Positions 1-64,000 of a stretch of DNA of 64,000 bases are shown one piece after another; positions within the stretch are counted from its first letter, which is position 1, and every line of letters starts with the position of its first letter. The position numbers and the translations under genes are program-made. The stretch is taken from sequence record OP745617. The stretch is one strand, 5' to 3'. Below the pieces are notes generated by a model. That model was not told where the DNA came from and did not search any database. It saw nothing but the letters and a program-made list of their open reading frames with translations. This DNA comes from Escherichia phage F13.

Positions 1-102
1 GGACTCTCCAAAGAAGAGTTCAGCAGCATTGCCGAAGCAAAGGCATGGCTAAAGGCATTCTACAAGGCCAATCCTAAATTTTATCCAACTAAGGGTGCAT
101 AA
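1..102 (+). CDS. 3' end of upstream gene (partial, hypothetical protein)
   Basis: Open frame from window edge (…GLSKEEFSSIAEAKAWLKAFYKANPKFYPTKGA*) ending at TAA 100-102, overlapping ATG 102 of the next gene. Confidence 0.4.
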   Translation, partial: GLSKEEFSSIAEAKAWLKAFYKANPKFYPTKGA

Positions 103-320
103 TGACCGATAAACAATACGCAGTCGGGCAACGTGACATCGAGCAACTCGACGAGGGCGGTTATTATACACGCCACATCTATGCTATGACTCAAGAAGGA
201 CTTTACAGCAAGTCGGACATCGCCGCTGAACTGGCCCATCGCGACTTGCAAATTGATCTTCTCAAGATAGAAGTGCAGAACTTACGAAACACCCTGTTAA
301 ACACCTGGAGCTTAAAATGA
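102..320 (+). CDS. hypothetical protein (72 aa)
   Basis: ATG start overlapping upstream stop; stop overlaps next gene start (ATGA at 317-320), typical phage translational coupling. Confidence 0.5.
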   Translation: MTDKQYAVGQRDIEQLDEGGYYTRHIYAMTQEGLYSKSDIAAELAHRDLQIDLLKIEVQNLRNTLLNTWSLK

Positions 321-742
321 TACAGCGTTACGACCTGACATATGATGTGGCATCGGACGATTTCGCCGTCACTCCCGTTCCAGAAAGTCATGAAGGACGT
401 TTTGTTGCATATGAGGACTATGAATCACTGCTCAAGCTTAATGAGTCGCTAACAAAAGAGATTGAGCAATACCACGAGCGCATCAAAGTCGCTGAAGATG
501 TTATCAAGCTTTTTAGCGAGGCTGTTGAGAAATACAAGGAGCGCAACGTACCGATTAAGGAGGAAGCGTGGACCGTGTGGCTTGGTGGTGAGAATCCTGC
601 ACCTGGCGAGATTGTTGAATACAAGCTGCGCAATGGAGGTGATAAAGTATTGTCGAGACTTTCTGACCATCTTCACTGGGGTCATATAGGAGCACTCAAA
701 GGCAGCGACATCATTGCTTATCGGGTCGTTAAGGAGGGGTGA
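317..742 (+). CDS. hypothetical protein (141 aa)
   Basis: ORF coupled to neighbours by ATGA overlaps at both ends. Confidence 0.55.
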   Translation: MIQRYDLTYDVASDDFAVTPVPESHEGRFVAYEDYESLLKLNESLTKEIEQYHERIKVAEDVIKLFSEAVEKYKERNVPIKEEAWTVWLGGENPAPGEIVEYKLRNGGDKVLSRLSDHLHWGHIGALKGSDIIAYRVVKEG

Positions 743-1275
743 TGGGTAACGATGCAGGATGGGGCAAGCCGCGATACTCAAAACTTGCCCACTACTTTGA
801 CGACGGCGAGCAAATCAGCTTGTGCGGTAAATTCAACAAAGGCAATACAGAGTTGACCGATGCTCAAGAAATGGAATCAAGTCTGACAATTGGTGATTGC
901 TCTAAGTGCAGAAAGGCATTATATGAGTTATTGACTCTAAGGGGATTGAAAGCGGCAAAATCAAGGGATGAATGGGTCATCAACGTCTGTGAAGGGAATC
1001 CAGAATTGATGGATGAATTGCTGAAAACAGATGCCGTTAATGCCATTTTCAAAAGGCATTATAAAACTTGTATGCGTTACAAGATGAATGATGATATTAT
1101 TTTTATGGTATTATCTTATTCAAGGAGCACAATGGACGTCAAAAAGCTTCGACAATATCGCCACAAGGTCATGTGTGAATTGCGCCGTTTAGGAGTTATT
1201 GTGGATAATAATGTCATTAAAACGGAGTTAAAGAAGCGTGATAAAAGGAATGGTGACTGGAAGGTCAGCGGATAA
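739..1275 (+). CDS. hypothetical protein (178 aa), Cys pairs suggest possible zinc binding
   Basis: ORF with CGKF…CSKC spacing; last gene before the AT-rich element at 1.54-1.99 kb. Confidence 0.5.
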   Translation: MMGNDAGWGKPRYSKLAHYFDDGEQISLCGKFNKGNTELTDAQEMESSLTIGDCSKCRKALYELLTLRGLKAAKSRDEWVINVCEGNPELMDELLKTDAVNAIFKRHYKTCMRYKMNDDIIFMVLSYSRSTMDVKKLRQYRHKVMCELRRLGVIVDNNVIKTELKKRDKRNGDWKVSG

Positions 1276-1539
1276 ATAAACACTGTTTACGTGTTTTGAA
1301 GAATGGAATGTGTGCAATGGGTCGCTTTATGCGGCCTTTTGTCGTTTGGGTCATGTTTTGCTATGGAATAATTATGAGGTTGTGTTTTATTTATTAATTG
1401 TGCGGAAATATTTAGAAATATATATAAACAGGATTGTTAATATTTTAATAGTTTATGGCTATTGGTCCGTGGTGTTTGTTAGATTCTATCTATGGATTGG
1501 ATTTTCTTGGGTCGTGAAACGTGGTTTTGAACACATTTG

Positions 1540-1990
1540 ATACGCCTAAAATACGGTTAAAAATTAAGCGTATCATGGCTGCAGGCCGCGCCGTTCCTGG
1601 ATTCCTCTTTTCCAAATTGGTACACCCTTACGTCATGATACGTCATGGTTTTTTATCCGTATCAGTGTACAACCCTTGCCGCGCCTGGCTTGTACATTAA
1701 TCTTACGGATGATACGGATAAAACTGAGCATCGTTATATATAGAATTCGAAAAATTAATTAACTCCATTTTAAAAACATTTATATTAATTTTTTTCATAT
1801 CCTCATACTTATGTTAATTTATATATTTAACGTATCATCCGTAAGATATAAGTAAAAACAAAGACTTGCGGCAATACGGATGATACGTCATGATACGCTT
1901 CAACCAGCCAGCAGCGGCTAAGTCGTTGATTTGCATAACAAGCGGCAAAAGGGATGGATTTCTTTTATACGTATCAAACAGTACACCACG
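1540..1990. repeat. Composite element A: AT-rich core (about 1735-1830) flanked by inverted repeats aatcttacggatgatacgg (1699-1718) and ccgtatcatccgtaagat (1831-1847), plus extra GGATGATACG-type copies (1629-1665, 1873-1898)
   Basis: Read directly; homologous to element B at 18055-18345 (shared aatcttacggatgatacgga and tatata-gaattc-aaa-ttaatt core). Confidence 0.8.
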
Positions 1991-2062
1991 CACCACGGTC
2001 CGTTATCCATTCAGCAATATGATTTGTGTACGTTTATAGCCATAATGAACATCAATCTGCAC

Positions 2063-2091
2063 TTGAATATAATGTCCATCCATTGTATAAT
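2063..2091 (+). promoter_or_regulatory. sigma70-like promoter with extended -10 (TTGAAT-N17-TGTATAAT) upstream of the TerS-like gene
   Basis: Hexamers and spacing read from sequence; the transcribed leader would contain two AATTTGCACTATG motifs. Confidence 0.4.
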
Positions 2092-2111
2092 TCACACTAT
2101 TAATTTGCACT

Positions 2112-2600
2112 ATGGGATTTTGCACTATGAGTCAAGATTATGTAGCGATGCCTGAAGACTTTGAAGACCCGCGATTCGCAGAGCACAATCAGGCTTTATT
2201 CGATGAGTTCATTGACCTTGTTATTCAGGGTCATGACATGCGCGCAGCTTTTGCACTAGTATTTGGAATGGAAGTTGCAACGGATAACTACACTGGCCAG
2301 CGAATCCTTTGCACGCAACGCAATCCATACTACAAGATGCGCTTCAAAAAGCGTATGGAAGAGATGCCACTCAAGGATTTGTGGAGCGTAAAAGGTGCAA
2401 TTCACAATTTGGTTAAGCTTGTTCGTGATCCAGAAGTCGCGGCGTCAGCCAAGCTTAATGCTATTCGTGAACTGAATATCATCTACGGCATCACGATGAT
2501 TGATGAAAACGGCAATAGTAAAATGGGCCGTTCCATGGACGATTTCTACAAGGATTTTGGAGAGGCGGCCAAAGAAGGTGAGCAATTCTCCCGCCACTAG
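2112..2600 (+). CDS. terminase small subunit-like DNA-binding protein (possible start at 2127)
   Basis: About 160 aa; NQALFDEFIDLVIQGHDMRAAFALVFGM and C-terminal AKLNAIRELNIIYGI resemble TerS (Terminase_2-type) segments; recognised from memory only. Confidence 0.4.
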   Translation: MGFCTMSQDYVAMPEDFEDPRFAEHNQALFDEFIDLVIQGHDMRAAFALVFGMEVATDNYTGQRILCTQRNPYYKMRFKKRMEEMPLKDLWSVKGAIHNLVKLVRDPEVAASAKLNAIRELNIIYGITMIDENGNSKMGRSMDDFYKDFGEAAKEGEQFSRH

Positions 2601-2619
2601 CCAATTTGCACTATAAAAC

Positions 2620-2654
2620 GGCCCTAGAACACATTTTCTCCAATTCTAGGGCCA
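2620..2654. terminator. Hairpin between convergent genes: perfect 10-bp stem GGCCCTAGAA/TTCTAGGGCC, 15-nt loop
   Basis: Inverted repeat read from sequence; no strong T-run, so terminator function is inferred from position. Confidence 0.4.
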
Positions 2655-2714
2655 TCGGTAATACGACGGGGAAGGTTACAAACATAAACGCGTTAGAAAG
2701 TGTATTATTATAAG

Positions 2715-2978
2715 TCATCTTTTAGTCACCTTACGTAACAATTTACGACCTTCAACCGTCCAATCGAACGACTCCACCAGCAGATTCGCACTATAACCTA
2801 AGACGATGCGTCCCTTCTCGTTATCGACCCGCCAACAAGTCTCGAATAGCATTCGATTTGCACTATTAACTATTGCCGCAACTCGCGTAGGATAAGCGCA
2901 ATTTGAACTATGGTCGTAAAGGGATAAGGTGCGACCACTTCCGATGGACAACGTAGCGATGAGAATGAGCGTATTCAT
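2715..2978 (-). CDS. doubtful ORF (87 aa) overlapping three copies of the AATTTGCACTAT motif
   Basis: Has a possible GGTGG RBS, but the motif copies inside suggest the region may be regulatory rather than coding. Confidence 0.2.
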   Translation of the reverse strand: MNTLILIATLSIGSGRTLSLYDHSSNCAYPTRVAAIVNSANRMLFETCWRVDNEKGRIVLGYSANLLVESFDWTVEGRKLLRKVTKR

Positions 2979-3028
2979 AAGCCACCAATTTGCACTATGA
3001 AAAGCGACCCCGAAGGGCCGCCATTCGA

Positions 3029-3655
3029 TTAGATAATCTGGAAGGTATAGGATTTGTTGCCGAACTCAAAGTTCAAGCGCCCAGCTTCCTTAAGCTTCAT
3101 GCGGAAGCGAATGTGCTTGCTATCCGGCAAGCCCAGCACGGCGAACGCTACGCGGACCGATTTGAACTCGCCTACACCCTCGACCATAACGCCGTTACGG
3201 GTGAGACGCTTTTGCGCCACTTCCTTATTATCCCAACTTTTTGCAATACCTTCGCTATTCGAACGGCGATGGGAAGGAGTTCCATTTTGCACTACGCAAT
3301 TTGCACTATCGTTTAGACCGCTCTTAACGAAGGCTTCATACTCTTCGTCGGTCATCGCGTCGAGTTCTTCCTGGGTCGGCTCGGCCTTTTTAACGACCGC
3401 ACGCGCCTTATGCGTTTTTACATCGCTGGACACTTCCTCGCGCGACTTCGCTTCGGGGATGGGCGATTCGTTGGACGGCTCATCGAGCGCGTTTAAGGAC
3501 TCGATTAACGCGATTACGCGAGTCTCGGCGGTACGGCGGTCCGCAAATTTCTTAATCGGCTTCGAACCGGAATTTGCATTATAAAATGCAACGAGGTCGG
3601 CGGTCTTAGTTGCGATAACGTCGCCGCTAGTCGAGAAACGATTTAAGCTAACCAT
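3029..3655 (-). CDS. hypothetical protein (208 aa)
   Basis: AGGAG RBS upstream of ATG at 3655; contains two tandem motif copies on the opposite strand and the TTTGCATT-N4-AATGCAAA palindrome near its 5' end. Confidence 0.6.
   Translation of the reverse strand: MVSLNRFSTSGDVIATKTADLVAFYNANSGSKPIKKFADRRTAETRVIALIESLNALDEPSNESPIPEAKSREEVSSDVKTHKARAVVKKAEPTQEELDAMTDEEYEAFVKSGLNDSANCVVQNGTPSHRRSNSEGIAKSWDNKEVAQKRLTRNGVMVEGVGEFKSVRVAFAVLGLPDSKHIRFRMKLKEAGRLNFEFGNKSYTFQII
3573..3592. promoter_or_regulatory. Palindromic operator-like site TTTGCATT-ATAA-AATGCAAA
   Basis: Perfect 8-bp inverted arms with 4-bp spacer; a dyad version of the AATTTGCA motif. Confidence 0.35.
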
Positions 3656-3735
3656 AATGAACTCCTATTTGTTAGGGCGCTAGGCGCGAAAGAATTTTAT
3701 TAAAGCGCCGCGCACGACGCTCTAAAAATCCTCTC

Positions 3736-4020
3736 TTACGCTTCGACGAGGGAGAAGGTCTCAAATTCTTCTTCGCCCATAACGAGTAAGATGTTACCGA
3801 TTTCGACCGCTTCGAAGAAGTATCCGTTAACGTTTACTTCGAAGGCTTCGCGGTCCGATTCCGGTAACGCCGCGTAAAGTTTAAAAGCCTCGGCGACCGT
3901 TACCCCACCCGCCTCGATGGTCTGGTCTACGTTCGCGGCGTAGACTTCGGATAAAATTTGTTTTACGCCGTAGTTCTCGACGATAGCGTTACGGATGGAA
4001 GAAACGTTAAGAATAGCCAT
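3736..4020 (-). CDS. small early protein, paralog family member A (94 aa)
   Basis: AGGAG RBS; preceded on the minus strand by the conserved promoter/hairpin cassette; MAILNVSSIR…EVYAANVD…VNGYFFEAVEIG aligns with the 4958-5248 product. Confidence 0.6.
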   Translation of the reverse strand: MAILNVSSIRNAIVENYGVKQILSEVYAANVDQTIEAGGVTVAEAFKLYAALPESDREAFEVNVNGYFFEAVEIGNILLVMGEEEFETFSLVEA

Positions 4021-4088
4021 TTTAAACTCCTAGTTGGGAGAGGCGTTAACGACCTATTCGCTAACTCATCCCGTCCCGATATGAGTAC

Positions 4089-4116
4089 ATTATAATATAG
4101 TGTAGAAAAAAGTAAA
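4089..4116 (-). promoter_or_regulatory. sigma70-like promoter (TTTACT-N16-TATAAT) of the conserved early cassette, minus strand
   Basis: Reverse complement of 4021-4128 is nearly identical to the plus-strand cassettes at 4548-4655 and 4851-4957. Confidence 0.5.
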
Positions 4117-4160
4117 GCACTTTTTCGATAAAAATGCGATAAATTATTTTATCTTTTTTC

Positions 4161-4188
4161 TTTACTTCTTCGTACACTCGCGTATACT
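4161..4188 (+). promoter_or_regulatory. sigma70-like promoter (TTTACT-N16-TATACT), diverged copy of the early cassette, divergent to the minus promoter
   Basis: CTTTACTTCTTCGTACACT shared with the other cassettes; followed by a GGGC…GCCC hairpin and a GGGAG RBS. Confidence 0.45.
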
Positions 4189-4244
4189 TGTTTATATCGA
4201 GACGGGCGATGGCCCTTCCTTCTACTAGCATCGGGAGCTTTATT

Positions 4245-4547
4245 ATGACTACTTTAATCTCTTCCATCCTTACTTACGACGAAGACCGTTTAACCGTTCG
4301 CTCTCTTATCGCCGCCGTTAACGCCGAACTAGAATCTAGCGCCATTAAGGTCCGCGCGGTTGCCTTCGTCGGTCTTTCCTTCGACGATATCAAGTACGCC
4401 GAACGTAGCGCCATCCGCTTCGCGAAGACCGACGACGAAGCCGTTACCCTTATCGAGACGGTTACTCCGCGCGGCGAAACGTTAATTATCGTCGAGTATA
4501 TCGACGTAGAAGGCGATAAGGCTTATAAATATTTTATCGCAAAATAA
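4245..4547 (+). CDS. small early protein, paralog family member B (100 aa)
   Basis: ATG at 4245 with GGGAG RBS (the track's 4188 start is a TTG inside the -10 element); N-terminus MTTLISSI resembles the paralogs; 3' two-thirds lies in the tandem duplication. Confidence 0.6.
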   Translation: MTTLISSILTYDEDRLTVRSLIAAVNAELESSAIKVRAVAFVGLSFDDIKYAERSAIRFAKTDDEAVTLIETVTPRGETLIIVEYIDVEGDKAYKYFIAK

Positions 4548-4558
4548 CGAAAAAGTGC

Positions 4559-4587
4559 TTTACTTCTTAGTACACTAAGACTATAAT
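4559..4587 (+). promoter_or_regulatory. sigma70-like promoter TTTACT-N17-TATAAT (cassette copy 1)
   Basis: Near-consensus -10 and 17-bp spacer; followed by the 5' UTR hairpin at 4610-4630 and AGGAG at 4644-4648. Confidence 0.55.
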
Positions 4588-4609
4588 GTTTTATATCGAG
4601 AGGGGATGA

Positions 4610-4630
4610 GGTAGCGAATAGGTCGCTACC
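4610..4630 (+). ncRNA. Conserved 5' UTR stem-loop (GGTAGCGA-ATAGG-TCGCTACC)
   Basis: Perfect 8-bp stem; the minus-strand copy (GTTAGCGA/TCGTTAAC) keeps pairing through a compensatory U-A and a G-U wobble. Confidence 0.5.
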
Positions 4631-4655
4631 CTCCCGACTAACTAGGAGAATATTA

Positions 4656-4850
4656 CGCGCGGTTGCCTTCGTCGGTCTTTCCTTCGACGATATCAAGTAC
4701 GCCGAACGTAGCGCCATCCGCTTCGCGAAGACCGACGACGAAGCCGTTACCCTTATCGAGACGGTTACTCCGCGCGGCGAAACGTTAATTATCGTCGAGT
4801 ATATCGACGTAGAAGGCGATAAGGCTTATAAATATTTTATCGCAAAATAA
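4656..4850 (+). pseudogene. Duplicated 3' fragment of gene 4245-4547 lacking a start codon
   Basis: Second repeat unit encodes RAVAFVGLSF…KYFIAK in frame, but the position matching the ATG of gene 4958 reads ACG (4655-4657). Confidence 0.45.
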
Positions 4851-4861
4851 CGAAAAAGTGC

Positions 4862-4890
4862 TTTACTTCTTAGTACACTAAGACTATAAT
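4862..4890 (+). promoter_or_regulatory. sigma70-like promoter TTTACT-N17-TATAAT (cassette copy 2, drives gene 4958-5248)
   Basis: Identical to copy 1 (offset 303 bp); hairpin at 4913-4933, AGGAG at 4947-4951. Confidence 0.55.
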
Positions 4891-4957
4891 GTTTTATATC
4901 GAGAGGGGATGAGGTAGCGAATAGGTCGCTACCCTCCCGACTAACTAGGAGAATATT

Positions 4958-5248
4958 ATGATCACTTTATCCGCTATCCGTGCCGCTCGCGTCGAAACTT
5001 CCGAAAACTCTAACGTATTTGGCGAAACCTTAGAGAGCGTTTATCTCTCTAACGTTGACGCGATTATCGAGTCTATTTATGAGCCGATCAACTTCCTCGA
5101 CCTTTACAAGTATCGCGATGAGGACATCGTGTCCTACCGCGTAACGATTAACGGCTTCGTTTATACGATTACCGAAATCGGCGGCGAATATCTCGCTGTA
5201 CCGCAACTCGGCGGCGAAGTAACTTACTTTAAAATCGTAAGCCTTTAA
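4958..5248 (+). CDS. small early protein, paralog family member C (96 aa)
   Basis: ATG with AGGAG RBS; clear similarity to the 3736-4020 product (IR-A-VE, VY-NVD-IE, NG-xxE-EIG). Confidence 0.6.
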   Translation: MITLSAIRAARVETSENSNVFGETLESVYLSNVDAIIESIYEPINFLDLYKYRDEDIVSYRVTINGFVYTITEIGGEYLAVPQLGGEVTYFKIVSL

Positions 5249-5259
5249 GGAGAAGAAAA

Positions 5260-5469
5260 ATGATTAATATGAATAACTCTCTTAACGCGCGCGCCCATCG
5301 CACCGCCGTCATCGATATGTTCCGTGAGCTTAAGGACTTATGCGATAATATGAACGCGATGTTATCCATCGGCGGCTGGGGATACGAAGAAGAAGTTAAA
5401 TATGCGGTTATGCGTCGCCGTCGCGATAACGTCCTTGGGCAAATTAAACGCGCCGGATTATTCCTTTAA
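5260..5469 (+). CDS. hypothetical small protein (69 aa, basic)
   Basis: AAGGAG RBS 8 nt upstream of ATG; followed by an intrinsic terminator. Confidence 0.55.
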   Translation: MINMNNSLNARAHRTAVIDMFRELKDLCDNMNAMLSIGGWGYEEEVKYAVMRRRRDNVLGQIKRAGLFL

Positions 5470-5495
5470 TTATAATCAACCACCGTTACTAATAG

Positions 5496-5517
5496 GCCGC
5501 GCTTAGTCGCGGCTTTT
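5496..5517 (+). terminator. Rho-independent terminator (GCCGCG-cttagt-CGCGGC followed by TTTTCTT)
   Basis: GC stem plus T-run directly after stop of gene 5260-5469. Confidence 0.6.
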
Positions 5518-5638
5518 CTTCGTCCCTATCTCGGTGCGCTCCTACGCGAAAACTCCTTTATCCTTCCCTTCGTCGTCGCATAATCTTCGTCGATATGCGC
5601 CTTAGTTCGCATAACAGGTATTACGTTAAATGGAGAAC

Positions 5639-5715
5639 ATCGCGTAAGTCCTTGTTTTATATAGACACCTATATCGGACCGTTAGGGCGGGTCGCGTAAG
5701 TCGTTGTTTTATAAA
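5639..5715. repeat. Direct repeat pair (A/G)TCGCGTAAGTC(C/G)TTGTTTTATA (5639-5663 and 5691-5715)
   Basis: Two 25-nt near-identical copies 52 bp apart in a 700-bp ORF-free region. Confidence 0.6.
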
Positions 5716-5838
5716 GGCGCAAAACTTTCCCTTCGTTCCGAACTAAAACGAGGAATATGCCGACCCTTCGTCCGAAAATAGTACGCATGCGAAATTACAT
5801 GCATCTAGAATAATCCCCACAGATATTATCCTACACGC

Positions 5839-5903
5839 AATCATTCGCTTTCGAATCATTATGCTTCATATTATTATGCGTCGAATCATTCGCTTTCGAA
5901 TTG
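5839..5903. repeat. Direct repeat pair ATCATTCGCTTTCGAAT (5840-5856 and 5885-5901)
   Basis: Read directly; each unit contains a TTCGAA palindrome. Confidence 0.6.
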
Positions 5904-5991
5904 TAACGCTGGAAACTGTAACGGCGATTGATTATTGCGTTCGTGTGGTTTTTATGGCATGGGTCTTTTGGTGCGTTTTGCTACTTGATGG

Positions 5992-6103
5992 AATTTGCGG
6001 TACACTAATCAAAATACGACACATTTAGTCTACTAACTTTTCAAAGAAAAAGTCCTGGACAGTACCGTACTATTTTGTACCCACAGGAAATTTGCAGTAC
6101 ACT
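5992..6103 (+). repeat. Variant motif pair AATTTGC(G/A)GTACACT (5992-6006 and 6088-6103)
   Basis: Shares AATTTGC with the 2.1-3.6 kb motif family and GTACACT with the early promoter cassette. Confidence 0.5.
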
Positions 6104-6183
6104 CCTGCGCGCGGCAGGCAAAATAAAGGGCCGCACCAAGCGACCCACGATTCACGATTCACGGTTAAAGCAACATCCACCCA

Positions 6184-6564
6184 CTATTCACTCTTATGGG
6201 CATCACCAAATCCATCAGCAATCTGGCTGATCAACGACTCAATGGACACAGTTTTACCAATTGATCGAGCGGTTATGGCGAGCATATTATCAATCAAACC
6301 ATGATTGACACAATACTCTGGAGATTTAGAATCATCTTCAGAACAACCAAAAAGCTGGTCGCGCAGACTTTCAAGAGAACGCTCAATATTTTCCAACTTC
6401 TCTTCTAAATCGGATTGGCGACGTAAAACCCATGTTAAGTCTCGGTTGCCGACTTCCAACCCATCAGAATAGCAAGGTGGAGCGTCAATTTTGATGCTGG
6501 AACCAAAAGCAGTGCCGCTGCCTTTAGTATAAGTATGGCTCATAGAATCATTTTTATTTGACAT
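6184..6564 (-). CDS. hypothetical protein (126 aa from ATG 6564)
   Basis: Last gene of the minus-strand block; internal ATG with weak AAGG RBS chosen over the track start. Confidence 0.45.
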   Translation of the reverse strand: MSNKNDSMSHTYTKGSGTAFGSSIKIDAPPCYSDGLEVGNRDLTWVLRRQSDLEEKLENIERSLESLRDQLFGCSEDDSKSPEYCVNHGLIDNMLAITARSIGKTVSIESLISQIADGFGDAHKSE

Positions 6565-58885: not shown

Positions 58886-59032
58886 ATGCAAAGCGAAGAA
58901 TTGAACATCGAGGTTGAAGGACTGTTAAAGTCGTTAGAACCTAAACCAGTAGAGCTTCCGACCCTTCAAGGCGTCATGGCTCACCATCAATCGGCTGCGG
59001 CCCAACACTACTCTGAATTTGTTAAGGAATAA
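58886..59032 (+). CDS. small hypothetical protein (48 aa), below the ORF-track cutoff
   Basis: GAGGTG RBS 5 nt before ATG 58886; stop 3 nt before the next gene's ATG. Confidence 0.35.
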   Translation: MQSEELNIEVEGLLKSLEPKPVELPTLQGVMAHHQSAAAQHYSEFVKE

Positions 59033-59034
59033 AA

Positions 59035-59325
59035 ATGAACGAACCAAAAATGATGACCGTTGAAGAAGCACAAAAGCTTCGTGTTGAAAACGAGCTTAAG
59101 CTTGTCAACCAGATTCTTCCTTTGTTTGCAGGCTACGCAGTGGAGGAAGTTGTTGGGGCAATCCTTAACGTATCCACGCATGTCGCTATGAATCTTCAGG
59201 CCGAGCGATTCAACACACTGCTGACTATTAAAGACCTTACCGTCAGCGCAACGTTCACTGTTGAGCCAGTCAATTTTGACGAAGCTTCAGCCGCGATTCA
59301 ACAGCAAAGAGATCAAGAGGTGTAG
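59035..59325 (+). CDS. hypothetical protein (96 aa)
   Basis: ORF in the small-gene cluster. Confidence 0.45.
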   Translation: MNEPKMMTVEEAQKLRVENELKLVNQILPLFAGYAVEEVVGAILNVSTHVAMNLQAERFNTLLTIKDLTVSATFTVEPVNFDEASAAIQQQRDQEV

Positions 59326-59326
59326 C

Positions 59327-59590
59327 ATGGGCGCTTTCCGTAACGAGTTCACCTGGAACGTTACCAGCAATCTCTCGACTTGTCCTAACTGTGCAAGCGA
59401 TGTTATCAAGGTGCGGCAGCATCGCAACGCGGAGGAAGGTGCCTGGGAAGATGGCGACCTTGTAGAGTGCCAGTGCTGCTCTCATGAAGGTGTTGTTGAG
59501 CTTCAAGCTGGTGAAGGTTGCCCACCAGCAGAGCGCACAGCACGCGTTGAATGGGATGCAACAGACTCCATTGGTGATCCTCAACAGTAA
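59327..59590 (+). CDS. small zinc-ribbon-like protein (87 aa)
   Basis: AGAGGTG RBS, ATG 59327; CPNCASD…CQCCSH cysteine pairs. Confidence 0.45.
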   Translation: MGAFRNEFTWNVTSNLSTCPNCASDVIKVRQHRNAEEGAWEDGDLVECQCCSHEGVVELQAGEGCPPAERTARVEWDATDSIGDPQQ

Positions 59591-59608
59591 ATTTAGGTAT
59601 AGATACTT

Positions 59609-59713
59609 ATGAAAGCCGTAAAGAAATACACATTAATCATTTCCCTTGTCATCATCCTGGGGCTATTATATGTATTGGATATGGCATATTATTTGGCAGG
59701 GGTGAGTGGATGA
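59609..59713 (+). CDS. possible membrane peptide (34 aa)
   Basis: MKAVKKYTLIISLVIILGLLYVLDMAYYLAGVSG; weak RBS; stop overlaps next start. Confidence 0.25.
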   Translation: MKAVKKYTLIISLVIILGLLYVLDMAYYLAGVSG

Positions 59714-60000
59714 ATATTGTAATTCTTTATGGTGAAAATATCAGCGATGACGACATCGAAGTTGCCGTTGATGTTTACGGTATCGATGAGGTGAAACGTG
59801 TTGAAGAAATTAGTGGCGCAAATCTCAATGAGATTGTCAAAGAAGCTTGCTGCCCTTCGGAAGAGATTCTGGTGGTTACTAACGATGACCTGTCTTCTAT
59901 GGATCATTTGCGCCGCATCTTCACCGATTGCCAATACCTTCATGCTGTTCAATCAGTAAACAAATTGAGAAAGGCATACGCCAACCAATTTCCTTGCTGA
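59710..60000 (+). CDS. hypothetical acidic protein (96 aa)
   Basis: ORF followed by an intrinsic terminator. Confidence 0.45.
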   Translation: MNIVILYGENISDDDIEVAVDVYGIDEVKRVEEISGANLNEIVKEACCPSEEILVVTNDDLSSMDHLRRIFTDCQYLHAVQSVNKLRKAYANQFPC

Positions 60001-60050
60001 TAGTTCACCAGTTATATTGCTTTAAATTGAGTTTTACTATATTAATATAC

Positions 60051-60076
60051 AACGCCAGATTTCTGGCGTTTATTTA
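60051..60076 (+). terminator. Rho-independent terminator (AACGCCAG-attt-CTGGCGTT then TATTTA)
   Basis: 8-bp stem plus T-rich tail about 50 nt after the stop. Confidence 0.6.
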
Positions 60077-60136
60077 CCGCACCCTGAAAGGATATATCCA
60101 TGCAACAATATAACAAAGCCGTATCAGGAGGATTAA

Positions 60137-61807
60137 ATGTCAATTAATAATGACAATCTTCCAGAGGATACAGGTGATGAATTTGGTGCAATCTTTGACG
60201 AAATTCAAGATGCAGGCGTTTCGGAAGAAATGCAGGCAGCAGAGCAGCAAGGCACCAGAGCTAAAATCAGCCTTCAACATAAAGCCGTTGAAAAAGATTC
60301 AGAGCGCATGGAATGCTACGGTGAAGAAGACTTGGTTGAAAGAGCACGCTTGCTCGCCTCACTTCAGGTAATCAAGTTCCCTCACTACAAGCCGACCAAA
60401 GATGACTTCGTTCTACAGGCAGACCGGACGAGTGACATGAACCGTTATGCGGTTTTCGACGCGTTGTTTGATAAGGGAAGTGGCGTTGTTCCATTCCCTC
60501 ACAAAGATACTTTTCGTGGGCGCTTAGTCGACCATCGCGGCGAAACATTCACCGACCGTACTTTGGAAGTCACAGAGATAGTTGCCGCTGTCGACGCAGC
60601 AGGATTGTCCAACCCAAACTCACGTCAGGTCGCTCAATCCTATAAGGAATGGGCCATGCGTTATCAGCGCGACGACCTGATGGACTTCTTCTACAAGAAG
60701 CTGCCTGAATGGGACGGTACTGCGCGCATCGAGAAATACCTTATCGAGCTATTCCGACCGTTCGATACAGAGTTAAACCGACAAATCGGTGTGTATTTTT
60801 GGCTATCGCTCTACAACCGCCTGACCAACCCTGGCTGTCAAGCGCCAATTTCTATCGCGCTCATCGGCGGCCAGAACGCAGGGAAGAGTTATTTTAGCAA
60901 GCTGCTTTGCGAAGCTATTATGAACGACCGCCACGCAACACCGATTCCGTTGAACTTAGCCGCGCAAAACTTCAACCCGTTCTTGCGAGCTATTACGGGT
61001 CGCTCAATTATCGCGAACGTTGGCGAGATGACAGGCTTTAAAAAGGCCGACATCGAAAACATGAAAGCATTCCTGACTAAGACGGAAGATGACCTGGACT
61101 TCAAATTTGAAGATACGCAGGTTAAACCACGCCAGTGGATTGCGATAATGGACGGCAACGAATACGCAGGTATGCAGCGTGATGACACGGGCAACCGTCG
61201 TGTGTATCCTATCTTTGTTGGCCAACTCGCCGACAAGGACGGGCAACCGAACTGGTCGAAAGACTTCCAAGCTGACCTTTCCACTTTGAAAGAAGACGTT
61301 TGGCAATTGATGGCTGAGTGCGCTGCTTGGATGGAGAAGCACGGCGAAGCAGGTTACAACGCGTTTGTTGGTGAAACATCTCGCATGCTCACTGAGTTTA
61401 GTAAGAACGAAATGGAACGTGCACGCGGCGTTATTCGTGATGAGATGGTTGACAACGACCTTGTTGAAGTCGTCATTACCGCGCCTTATGACCGACATCA
61501 CAGCGGACGCTGGCACATAACCAGTGGTGCTATTGCTATGGGATTCAGAGCGAAGTGCGGCAAGTCGCCTTTCTCTCGTACCCTTGCGCCGCACATGTCG
61601 AAGCTTGGTTTTGAGCCTGCAACCTATCGCAACCAGCGCGGTTACTTTACGCCGCTGATTAAGAATGAAGCAGGAGAATACATTTCTGATTTGATGACCA
61701 TCTTAGCGTATCTTATCCGCGATGAGTCTGACCCTGAAGATATTGAATTCTTGAAGAAGGTTATTGAGCGTAAACGTTCTTTGGGAAGAGATAAGGATGA
61801 ATTCTGA
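60137..61807 (+). CDS. VirE/D5-like primase-associated SF3 helicase
   Basis: AGGAGG RBS; P-loop ISIALIGGQNAGKSYFSKL in the C-terminal half; 556 aa. Confidence 0.55.
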   Translation: MSINNDNLPEDTGDEFGAIFDEIQDAGVSEEMQAAEQQGTRAKISLQHKAVEKDSERMECYGEEDLVERARLLASLQVIKFPHYKPTKDDFVLQADRTSDMNRYAVFDALFDKGSGVVPFPHKDTFRGRLVDHRGETFTDRTLEVTEIVAAVDAAGLSNPNSRQVAQSYKEWAMRYQRDDLMDFFYKKLPEWDGTARIEKYLIELFRPFDTELNRQIGVYFWLSLYNRLTNPGCQAPISIALIGGQNAGKSYFSKLLCEAIMNDRHATPIPLNLAAQNFNPFLRAITGRSIIANVGEMTGFKKADIENMKAFLTKTEDDLDFKFEDTQVKPRQWIAIMDGNEYAGMQRDDTGNRRVYPIFVGQLADKDGQPNWSKDFQADLSTLKEDVWQLMAECAAWMEKHGEAGYNAFVGETSRMLTEFSKNEMERARGVIRDEMVDNDLVEVVITAPYDRHHSGRWHITSGAIAMGFRAKCGKSPFSRTLAPHMSKLGFEPATYRNQRGYFTPLIKNEAGEYISDLMTILAYLIRDESDPEDIEFLKKVIERKRSLGRDKDEF

Positions 61808-62454
61808 TGAATAAAGCAATCAACATCGCTAAATTCTTTCAACATCTTGGTGAACTGAACAAAGAAAGTGACGTTCACGGCGAAGAAATGAACCGGATGA
61901 TTTCAACCGTGTTGCGTGGCTTTGGTTATGATAAGGACTCCATCACTTGCAAGCGTACAAAACTTGTCGATGAGTCTTATCTTTACTACGTAGAGCTGCG
62001 CATTGGTAAAGATGTAATGATTATTGACCCTAAACTGGAAGGGGCGCACTGTTTTGGCGCTCATCCTCGTGCGAGTGAATTCAAGGGTCGCGGTCGCAAC
62101 CGAATCCAGAAGCTTGATGACGCAGGCGACTTGAACATTGCCATGTTCCTCAAAGAGTTCCTTGCGCTACCGAAGGTTGCATCATCCACTGGCCGTGATG
62201 ACCCTTGCAAGATTGGATTCAGAACTAAAGATTTGCGCAATGCGCTACGCAAGAAGGGATTTGTGCCTTCTTATGACAACGTCGCCGCGCTGATGGCTTC
62301 AATGGAGGAAGCTGAAGCGATGGACAAGGTGCGCGGCTATTTCCTGAATACAGGCTTCACCATGTATGAATGGCACACGAAGGGATTGACTGTCGCCGAC
62401 TTCATCTATTCATTAGAGCAGAAGTATGTACGCAATATGCAGGCCACAGGATAA
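61807..62454 (+). CDS. hypothetical protein (215 aa)
   Basis: ATGA coupling with the helicase gene. Confidence 0.5.
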   Translation: MNKAINIAKFFQHLGELNKESDVHGEEMNRMISTVLRGFGYDKDSITCKRTKLVDESYLYYVELRIGKDVMIIDPKLEGAHCFGAHPRASEFKGRGRNRIQKLDDAGDLNIAMFLKEFLALPKVASSTGRDDPCKIGFRTKDLRNALRKKGFVPSYDNVAALMASMEEAEAMDKVRGYFLNTGFTMYEWHTKGLTVADFIYSLEQKYVRNMQATG

Positions 62455-62493
62455 TTATCATCAAAATATTTGCTTTTCTGACGAGGTGATATT

Positions 62494-62718
62494 ATGATTA
62501 ATTTAGACAGGATTGAGTTAGCACTTAGTACCTTAATCAAATATTACCAGTTTGCTTTTAAGGCTAGTTTGTTTGGCTTGTTCAATCCTCATCAAGCAGC
62601 AAAGGCGAGAAGCAATGCCAACCGCCTGCGCTGCACTGGTATAGTTATCCACGACCGGATATTGACAGAGGGTAGATTCAGCCATGAATACACAGGGGAG
62701 AATAACAAATCAACGTAG
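62494..62718 (+). CDS. hypothetical protein (74 aa)
   Basis: GAGGTG RBS. Confidence 0.4.
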   Translation: MINLDRIELALSTLIKYYQFAFKASLFGLFNPHQAAKARSNANRLRCTGIVIHDRILTEGRFSHEYTGENNKST

Positions 62719-62893
62719 GGCTTTACAAGTCCTCATCCACTACCTGTCACGCCTTTATCCAACGGCGCACGAGCAGAATCCAGCGACTGGTAATCTGTTT
62801 AAGCGCCGTAACCTTTCGTTAAAAACATTCGCTTTAATCCAATATGACCGCTACCTGGACGGGCGCTACTGCGGCCCGAAGGATTCTCTATGA
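62684..62893 (+). CDS. hypothetical basic protein (69 aa)
   Basis: Overlaps the upstream ORF by 35 nt; start uncertain. Confidence 0.3.
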   Translation: MNTQGRITNQRRALQVLIHYLSRLYPTAHEQNPATGNLFKRRNLSLKTFALIQYDRYLDGRYCGPKDSL

Positions 62894-63168
62894 TTACTAC
62901 ATACAAAGTATTCTTTGTCAAGTGCACATCATCTATTGATGACCAATTTACTGCTGGCAAGAATTATCCCGTGATTTCTGAGTCAAAGCTAGATATAATC
63001 TTGAACGATCATGAAATCTATGAGCCGATGCCAGCGACTGCGTTTGATGTTATCGGTCACGTTCGGATCAAGACGAATGTTGAGACGATGCATGACCCGT
63101 TGTTCAAGAAGCAAATCAAGAATGCCATGCAAGACTTTTGCGCGGCCATGTTTAAATATTATAAGTGA
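62890..63168 (+). CDS. hypothetical protein (92 aa)
   Basis: ATGA coupling. Confidence 0.45.
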   Translation: MITTYKVFFVKCTSSIDDQFTAGKNYPVISESKLDIILNDHEIYEPMPATAFDVIGHVRIKTNVETMHDPLFKKQIKNAMQDFCAAMFKYYK

Positions 63169-63175
63169 GTTGAAG

Positions 63176-63397
63176 ATGAGCAAGAAAACCCTTAAGGCTG
63201 GCGACCGTATCCGTTGGATGTCAGGACAGAATATGCGCGCAGGCACCATCCTTGAGCTGGACCAGTACCTTACCGATTCACGCGGTCGCAATCATTACCG
63301 CGTTCGAATCGATACAGTAAAAGAAGATGACAAGTCACTGGTTGGTGAAGTCGTCATCGTAACTCCACGTCAAATCAAGGCGGCTTGTGAAGCGTGA
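63176..63397 (+). CDS. hypothetical protein (73 aa)
   Basis: Internal ATG 63176 chosen; the track's N-terminal extension overlaps the previous gene. Confidence 0.4.
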   Translation: MSKKTLKAGDRIRWMSGQNMRAGTILELDQYLTDSRGRNHYRVRIDTVKEDDKSLVGEVVIVTPRQIKAACEA

Positions 63398-63549
63398 ATA
63401 AATATCAATTTAACGATAATAAAATCAGTAAGGCAGACGCAATCAAGCAGCTTCGTCGCGTACTTGAAGCCAGCGGTCACACGAAAGAGCGTGCACGCGT
63501 CCTGGCCAAAGAGCATTATAAACGTTTTGTGTCACAAATCAGAGGTTAA
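63394..63549 (+). CDS. small hypothetical protein (51 aa, GTG start)
   Basis: GTGA overlap with previous stop. Confidence 0.3.
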   Translation: MNKYQFNDNKISKADAIKQLRRVLEASGHTKERARVLAKEHYKRFVSQIRG

Positions 63550-63551
63550 TT

Positions 63552-64000
63552 ATGATCATCCATCGCCCTTTAATGTTAAGTAAAACAGAAGCAGCAATTA
63601 TTTTAGCGGCAGCAAGTCAATGTAACGTTCCAATTCCATTAAGGATGAAAATAAATAAATTCATCGACAGCGAGTTTGCAGATGTTGAGTCATTCGATAT
63701 TTTACCGCCAACCAAAAGGCATGTTGAAAGACTTGTACATCACCAATCACGTTGCGCAAAAGTTCCTATTCAAACTTATGTTGATAAAAAGCCGCGCCTT
63801 AAACCTGTTCCGGCTGATAAGATAGAAGTTGGTGACGTTATTGTTTGCGTATATTACGGCAGTCAGATTTTCAATGCTGTTGTAGTAAGGCGATACAGCA
63901 TGAACGGTTGCCAATACATGGAAGTGACGAACGCAAAGAAAGAACCTGGCAGCTTGAACGTGGCTTACGCATTAAGGGAATTCAGCAGTCCTTCTTGCAC
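63552..64000 (+). CDS. hypothetical protein, 5' part (runs off the window end)
   Basis: AGAGG RBS 6 nt upstream of ATG 63552; open frame to the window edge. Confidence 0.4.
   Translation, partial: MIIHRPLMLSKTEAAIILAAASQCNVPIPLRMKINKFIDSEFADVESFDILPPTKRHVERLVHHQSRCAKVPIQTYVDKKPRLKPVPADKIEVGDVIVCVYYGSQIFNAVVVRRYSMNGCQYMEVTNAKKEPGSLNVAYALREFSSPSC

Follow-up and report, generated by a model that had tools for sequence, protein, structure and literature searches.

Within a 64,000-nucleotide stretch of Escherichia phage F13 DNA (sequence record OP745617; here called the window), a locus at positions 3736-5248 holds three small genes, which we name A, B and C. Comparative analysis indicates that A and C are full-length paralogues and that B belongs to a separate family; all three lie inside the direct terminal repeat (DTR) of the genome, behind copies of a promoter block found nowhere else in the window. 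We propose, with about even confidence, that the locus is an early accessory-gene module in the DTR of a Wifcevirus phage and encodes small acidic proteins directed at the host.

Gene A (3736-4020, minus strand) encodes 94 amino acids (aa) with an isoelectric point (pI) of 4.05, gene B (4245-4547, plus strand) 100 aa with a pI of 4.67, and gene C (4958-5248, plus strand) 96 aa with a pI of 4.23. AGGAG ribosome-binding sites can be read before the genes of the locus, and no signal peptide or transmembrane features were noted in A, B or C. Identical or nearly identical sequences are already deposited in GenBank, as the 'hypothetical proteins' SP13_005/007/008 and their Wifcevirus orthologues. 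The Wifcevirus records make no mention of the A/C paralogy, the shared promoter cassette and hairpin, or the polymorphism of the gene slots.

Genes A and C and the separate family of gene B

A preliminary description of this DNA had proposed that the products of A and C align along their length and that B shares their N-terminus, the three forming one family. For A and C this is borne out. BLASTP aligns A with C at 28% identity over 81 aa (E=1e-5), and with the allele of C in the WFC record at 33% over 89 aa (E=1e-6). The corresponding Smith-Waterman z-scores are 7.7 and 10.2, and none of 2000 shuffles reaches the score. The multiple alignment of the A/C family spans the whole length of the proteins and has 18 columns that are invariant in both subfamilies, and an A/C profile hidden Markov model (HMM), scanned over six frames of the window, matches only A and C. 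We conclude from these comparisons that A and C are true full-length paralogues.

Gene B stands apart. BLASTP gives no match of B to A or C, comparison of the B profile with the A/C profile has an hhalign probability of 0.15%, and the shuffle z-scores against A and C are -1.1 and -0.4 over the full length. For residues 1-30 the values are 1.0 and -0.9, no more than chance, so that the shared N-terminus, and with it the three-member family, was not upheld. A B profile HMM scanned over the same six frames matches only B and a truncated B copy. Alignment of the three proteins, a check that the preliminary description had itself suggested, is thus significant for the A/C pair and not for B, which appears to be a separate ORFan family with no detectable similarity to A or C. 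Full-length similarity unites A, C, a 103-aa protein of the metagenomic contig L007 and a 101-aa protein of Serratia phage WR01; B lacks it. Two further proteins, the acidic WFC_00005 (104 aa, pI 4.07) and a 114-aa protein of WR01, give non-significant profile-profile comparisons with both A/C and B. A does show a significant N-terminal match to WFC_00005 (z=6.5 over 30 residues).

Both families are narrowly distributed. Word-indexed searching of 5.8 billion proteins, together with an exhaustive profile search against 1.84 billion cluster representatives, found the A/C family only in Wifcevirus and in one 103-aa protein, P0020 (E=1.6e-11). Three proteins with Big_13 Ig repeats in the profile search were rejected as homologues, their significance being built up from many weak repeat hits on a beta-hairpin motif. 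P0020 is carried on L007, a 23-kb contig of a sister genus that is syntenic with this locus. It has a TerS-like (terminase-small-subunit-like) gene at 52% identity, homologues of the 87-aa (42%) and 208-aa (49%) genes of the present DTR, the same promoter cassette, and a C-like gene with, behind it, a B-like gene of 125 aa (29% identity by tblastn, 36% in alignment). The WR01 protein was found by tblastn with P0020 (hhalign 97%, E=6.7e-11); upstream of the 101-aa open reading frame (ORF) in this Myosmarvirus lie a 208-aa-gene homologue, a promoter of the same type and a hairpin of identical apex. The ORF (L015 4495-4800, equivalent to PP537919.1 1294-1599) is unannotated in the GenBank record. 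B is confined to Wifcevirus and L007. To judge from these sequences, three phage groups have kept the A/C family in the same context, with a conserved 5' untranslated region (UTR).

The expectation that no known family would be recognised proved correct in Pfam, PHROGs, PDB sequence and Foldseek searches. When A, B, C and four DTR neighbours were scanned with Pfam and PHROGs, the three genes drew no match, and the scans detected in them no domain for DNA binding or enzymatic activity. PDB sequence and profile searches for the three gave only noise (E>=0.067), and no paper characterising the genes was found in the literature. Structure prediction, proposed in the preliminary description together with Foldseek, gave AlphaFold2 models of C and B at low confidence (predicted local distance difference test scores, pLDDT, of 48 and 57), both with N-terminal helices and a C-terminal four-strand meander; at such values no fold assignment is possible. 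Foldseek against BFVD and PDB gave no useful match, the WFH orthologue of C apart from which all had E>0.01 being the sole return, a search made uninformative by the low confidence of the models.

Promoter cassettes and gene variation in the terminal repeat

Positions 3000-6500 of the window are 100% identical to OP352608.1 (Escherichia phage vB_EcoM_SP13, genus Wifcevirus) and 91-96% identical to 27 other Wifcevirus records. Window 1-3000 corresponds to OP352608.1 66719-69719 and window 61000-64000 to 58932-61932. The two ends of the OP352608.1 record are identical over 3899 bp and constitute a DTR, from which it follows that the window represents a form of the genome with the DTR collapsed to one copy. 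Window position 1768 equals OP352608.1 positions 1/68486 and the repeat ends at about 5969, so that the collapsed DTR (1768-5969, no strand) measures 4202 bp including a private 303-bp duplication. The A, B, C locus is entirely within it. In the related phage Mansfield a PhageTerm-predicted DTR of 3673 bp covers the same genes (PMC6753283). The DTR also carries the TerS-like gene and a putative packaging/regulatory repeat array built on the motif TTTGCACTAT.

The genes stand behind a distinctive promoter block, CTTTACTTCTTNGTACACT (19 nt), of which there are four copies in the 64 kb, all in this locus, compared with 0.06 expected. Each copy of the cassette has the form TTTACT-16/17-TATAAT or TATACT, with 9-10 of 12 matches to the -35/-10 hexamers in a promoter scan, followed by a conserved TTATATCGAGA(C/G)GGG stretch. 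P_A (4089-4116, minus strand; TTTACT-16-TATAAT, 10/12) precedes gene A, and its cassette is kept in relatives whichever gene follows. P_B (4161-4188, plus strand; TTTACT-16-TATACT) is divergent from it, and P_C (4862-4890, plus strand; TTTACT-17-TATAAT) lies upstream of C. The fourth copy (4559-4587, plus strand) duplicates P_C and has its own hairpin at 4610-4630. The strong promoters posited in the preliminary description are thus seen as repeated, near-consensus sigma-70-type elements. The cassette itself was found to be shared with B only in its core promoter; A and C have in common, in addition, a 5'-UTR hairpin with an 8-bp stem.

The ~110 nt upstream of A and those upstream of C are 77-88% identical, the stable hairpin included. 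Folding, motif search and pair counts place it at 4045-4065 on the minus strand in the leftward transcript (GUUAGCGAAUAGGUCGUUAAC) and at 4913-4933 on the plus strand upstream of C (GGUAGCGAAUAGGUCGCUACC). Upstream of A, C and the WR01 homologue, pairing in the stem is complete (100% of 69 cells), with both sides altered at three pairs (G-C/U-A, A-U/G-C and G-C/A-U/G-U). As they come from few independent lineages, these compensatory changes support a conserved hairpin without proving it. Its apex, GCGAAUAGGUCGC, is invariant upstream of the A/C-family genes of Wifcevirus, and the apex of the WR01 hairpin (L015 4450-4470), GCGAATAGGTCGC, is identical to it. The cassette, too, is conserved in L007 and WR01, at protein identities of 30-50%. 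No Rfam covariance model matches window 1500-6500 at E<=1. The hairpin may serve to stabilise the mRNA or act as an operator for a regulator.

The extra promoter results from a perfect tandem duplication, of 303 bp, 2.0 copies and 100% identity. Unit 1 (4353-4655, plus strand) holds codons 37-100 of B, the stop codon and the P_C promoter/UTR cassette; the last base of unit 2 (4656-4958, plus strand) is the A in the ATG of gene C. The second copy of codons 37-100 and the stop, B' (4656-4850, plus strand), matches the B profile HMM on a stop-to-stop ORF at 4587-4847, a frame in which no ORF is listed. It is probably an untranslated, non-coding remnant, since it has no in-frame ATG, GTG or TTG. 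The duplication is absent from both DTR copies of the otherwise identical OP352608.1, which have a single unit each, and from every relative compared, and its 30-nt junction has no match in IMG/VR, JGI metagenomes or GTDB genomes. Either it arose very recently as a private variant or it reflects an assembly artefact; a genuine duplication would predictably place one more promoter ahead of C and the 69-aa gene that follows. The local gene amplification put forward in the preliminary description proves overstated: there is one ancient inverted duplication (A/C) and one very recent tandem one, but the tandem unit copies a promoter and a non-translatable fragment and no whole gene.

Comparison of 28 Wifcevirus records, some of which are GenBank/RefSeq duplicates, shows that the genes behind these promoters differ greatly in their constancy. 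B is present in 28/28 at 86-100% identity. C is also present in 28/28, as two deeply divergent allele types (~90-100% and 62.5% identity). The slot behind P_A holds A in 11/28 records, the unrelated WFC_00005 in 11/28 and nothing in 6/28, where the 208-aa gene directly follows the cassette. Slot-A state and C allele assort independently; Bas101 and FEC19, for example, combine WFC_00005 with the SP13-type C. In RCIP0363 an extra 50-aa gene (L009 2071-2223, equivalent to PV464739.1 61070-61222) lies between B and the P_C cassette and would be another variable slot of the locus. The B-C gap is similarly widened in AV128 and ECO71P1, at ~290 nt compared with 108, as judged from gap sizes. The 69-aa gene after C occurs in 8/28 records.

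Substitution patterns between SP13 and WFC set C apart from its neighbours. The TerS-like, 87-aa and 208-aa genes are 97.6-98.7% identical in nucleotide sequence, with a synonymous divergence (dS) of 0.07-0.10 and a ratio of non-synonymous to synonymous divergence (dN/dS) of 0-0.07. B is 95.7% identical (dS 0.11, dN/dS 0.25), and C only 69.8% (dS 0.64, dN/dS 0.52). The first 16 codons of C are nevertheless 94% identical, and the alleles, ~37% divergent, lie between flanks that are ~98% identical. Because its identity and dS depart so far from those of the neighbouring genes (96-99% and 0.07-0.11), C appears to be an old divergent allele swapped in by recombination anchored in the conserved cassette, and not a case of simple fast evolution. 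That these are real genes is indicated by their AGGAG sites, by the dN/dS values of 0.25 for B and 0.52 for C, and by conservation across three phage groups. On this sequence evidence we regard the cassettes, the divergent pair P_A/P_B plus P_C, as fixed expression sockets whose occupants are exchanged, lost or replaced while the promoters and 5'-UTR stay constant.

Possible roles of the gene products

We favour a role in host takeover or anti-defence because the near-consensus sigma-70 promoters are unique to the locus, because its place in the DTR makes it present at whichever end enters first, because the products are small and acidic (pI 4.0-4.7) and show gene turnover of an arms-race kind, because the published resistance of Wifcevirus to restriction-modification (RM) lacks a known mechanism (PMC11990801), and because SPO1 and T5/BF23 offer precedents. 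Host RNA polymerase (RNAP) would transcribe A, B and C as soon as the end of the phage DNA enters the cell. The acidic products would act stoichiometrically, binding and neutralising host proteins, possibly by nucleic-acid mimicry. Their likeliest targets would be defence enzymes that act on DNA, restriction systems for instance, or further host proteins that handle DNA or RNA, and the turnover of A and C would reflect an arms race with variable host targets. The case both for early expression and for a host-takeover or anti-defence role is circumstantial.

A close parallel in layout is the host-takeover module of Bacillus phage SPO1, which occupies the terminal redundancy of that phage with 24 small genes in 13 kb (PMC10531801) and includes acidic inhibitors or DNA mimics of host proteins, such as Gp44, which acts against RNAP, and Gp46, which acts against HU (PMC10531801, PMC8208478, PMC8892312). 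Both modules consist of small genes without recognisable homologues, in a terminal redundancy and behind strong host-RNAP promoters, those of the present locus being predicted from sequence. There is, however, no sequence or detectable fold relationship between the SPO1 proteins and A, B or C, and no family of SPO1 gp37-60 was found by Pfam or PHROGs in A, B, C or their neighbours. The Wifcevirus module is also much smaller, with 3-5 genes in ~4 kb, its host is Gram-negative, and its repeat carries the TerS-like gene as well.

Phages T5 and BF23 resist type I, II and III RM when the sites lie outside the terminal repeats, through a function still unidentified (PMC10644984). The Wifcevirus locus resembles their pre-early (first-step-transfer) region in that genes of a long DTR are presumably expressed first, by host sigma-70 RNAP. 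Wifcevirus, like T5, shows RM resistance without a known mechanism: its members are reported to replicate extremely fast and to withstand almost every restriction system tried, by no known means of protection (PMC11990801). The DTR here is ~4 kb compared with ~10 kb in T5, nothing points to two-step DNA transfer or an injection stop signal, and no homologue of T5 A1, A2 or dmp was recognised by Pfam and PHROGs among the seven DTR proteins scanned. Wifcevirus is reported to be selectively sensitive to EcoP1_I, and the DTR contains 12 EcoP1I sites (AGACC; 10 without the duplication) in both orientations, twice the genome-wide density. This density is compatible with, though no proof of, a T5-like model in which an 'unprotected first segment' accounts for EcoP1_I sensitivity. 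The DTR has one EcoRV site, one EcoKI site and zero EcoRI sites compared with 19 in the window, an absence that is not significant as ~1.2 would be expected.

T7 Ocr, ArdA and T4 Arn are small, strongly acidic proteins made by host RNAP from the first-entering DNA. A, B and C resemble them in size and in acidity, with no Pfam match above noise and no PDB sequence match to place them in these families. The low-confidence models of B and C predict a mixed alpha/beta organisation with a beta-meander, in contrast to the all-helical fold of Ocr. In general kind, we read the locus as an early accessory module of a terminal repeat, a type already known, built from new ORFan families.

Several observations weigh against a host-directed role. 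A, B and C have no Pfam, PHROGs or PDB match, the models of C and B are of low confidence (pLDDT 48 and 57), and acidity alone is weak evidence of mimicry. The TerS-like gene and repeat array that share the DTR imply that it is not a purely early region. All four Wifcevirus isolates of the BASEL collection are RM-resistant despite differing in slot A and C allele, which means that the variable genes alone cannot explain the resistance; B alone is universal. An undetected DNA modification could explain the resistance equally well.

A narrower form of the host-directed reading, which we think possible though unlikely, is that one or more DTR proteins, with B the best candidate and A/C possibly contributing, are the genome-protection factor of Wifcevirus, forming a new family, of no recognised fold, that inhibits restriction or other defences broadly. 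If so, this would explain resistance to type I, II and III RM despite dozens of EcoRI sites (36-38 in the RM-resistant phages), and the slot-A occupants and C alleles would be specificity variants for different host defences. The candidate list of three or four small genes, which lie behind the only copies of a distinctive cassette in a repeat at both genome ends, makes the question of Wifcevirus RM resistance testable. The BASEL phages Bas98-101 grow on E. coli K-12 derivatives. The layout of fixed sockets and swappable genes, with its conserved hairpin, also marks a natural insertion site of possible use in phage engineering.

The alternative that survives best, although we give it a low probability, is that the proteins serve the phage's own programme as regulators of an early-to-middle switch, as genome-end factors (end protection, concatemer formation or resolution), or as accessory packaging or replication proteins. 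It would suit a DTR locus that adjoins a TerS-like gene and a TTTGCACTAT array conserved in relatives, the conservation of both B and the 208-aa protein throughout Wifcevirus and in L007, the 69-aa gene of a 'transcriptional regulator' family after C, and an invariant UTR hairpin that suggests coordinated post-transcriptional control. Core functions, however, are not normally gained, lost or swapped among 98%-identical genomes, as slot A is, and seldom exist as 37%-divergent alleles, as C does. The lack of any DNA-binding or enzymatic domain in the Pfam and PHROGs scans also speaks against this alternative.

Doubtful, too, is the idea that A, B and C, with WFC_00005, are very distant members of one fold family in which the similarity of B has eroded past detection. 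The proteins are alike in size (94-104 aa), acidity and position, the N-terminal match of A to WFC_00005 links two of them, and a B-like or other acidic gene comes after an A/C-family gene in both L007 and WR01. The models of B and C also share an order of elements, with a helix at about residues 4-13, another at about 46-52 and the C-terminal meander. Such an order is generic among small alpha/beta proteins, however, the models are too low in confidence for fold comparison, and neither the profile comparison (hhalign 0.15%) nor the shuffle tests (z <=1.1) bring B closer to A/C.

We are slightly more sceptical of the proposal that the genes are dispensable passenger ORFans, a moron-like cargo kept by strong promoters and by recombination-prone repeats that tolerate insertions. 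The restriction of the families to Wifcevirus and two relatives among 1.84 billion representatives agrees with it, as do the varying slot occupancy and the structural plasticity of the locus evident in its private 303-bp duplication. Passengers, however, would hardly be expected to show what B and C show, retention in 28/28 records with dN/dS <1, or what the A/C family shows, survival in three phage groups with its context and UTR conserved. Should A, B and C turn out to lack a host target, the locus would be no more than an unremarkable cluster of phage ORFans. Very improbable, finally, is an origin of the ORFs and their similarity in chance or sequence artefact, which the A-C z-scores (7.7-10.2) and the presence of the genes in 28 phage records, described as independent but including the duplicates mentioned above, refute, the one suspect feature, a 303-bp duplication unique to this sequence and possibly an assembly artefact, leaving the reading frames of A, B and C unaffected.

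Neighbouring genes and repeat elements

Downstream of A on the same strand lies the 208-aa gene (3029-3655, minus strand; phrog_4730, unknown function), which is probably co-transcribed from P_A. It stands directly behind the P_A cassette in Ro157lw, ECML-117 and RCIP0319, and its product is always the first conserved protein behind the leftward cassette. WR01 has the 208-aa homologue twice (L015 241-834 and 3898-4404), annotated without evidence as 'Gam-like' and 'replication protein'.

On the other side, C is followed by the 69-aa gene (5260-5469, plus strand; phrog_10377, annotated 'transcriptional regulator'), found in 8 Wifcevirus records only. Homologues of its product at 40-46% identity occur in ~315 other phage records, nearly all of Klebsiella phages (one labelled Webervirus), and by its sequence it looks like a horizontally shared small regulator. 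A terminator-like hairpin (5494-5515, plus strand) ends the rightward unit; a terminator is annotated at the corresponding place in the WFC record.

The motif TTTGCACTAT has 11 matches in the 64 kb (<=1 mismatch; 6 exact), all on the plus strand at 2104-3582, in and around the TerS-like gene and antisense to those of 87 and 208 aa. This array is kept in every Wifcevirus locus compared and in L007, and may be a packaging (pac-type) or regulator-binding array.

At the boundaries of the repeat, the OP352608.1 record has one base more than the window on each side (1767/1768 and 5969/5970), reading CCA|ATTTT for CCATTTT and CTTT|TTGG for CTTTTGG. The extra bases suggest that the repeat ends in OP352608.1 were set by hand or by a different assembly. 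Near the right end are two sets of direct repeats, at 5640-5716 and 5823-5910; one is a 25-nt pair, TCGCGTAAGTC(C/G)TTGTTTTATA(T/A)AG, and the other comprises ~4 copies of the 15-nt unit AATCATT(A/C)GCTTTCG. These repeats may be end-recognition elements.

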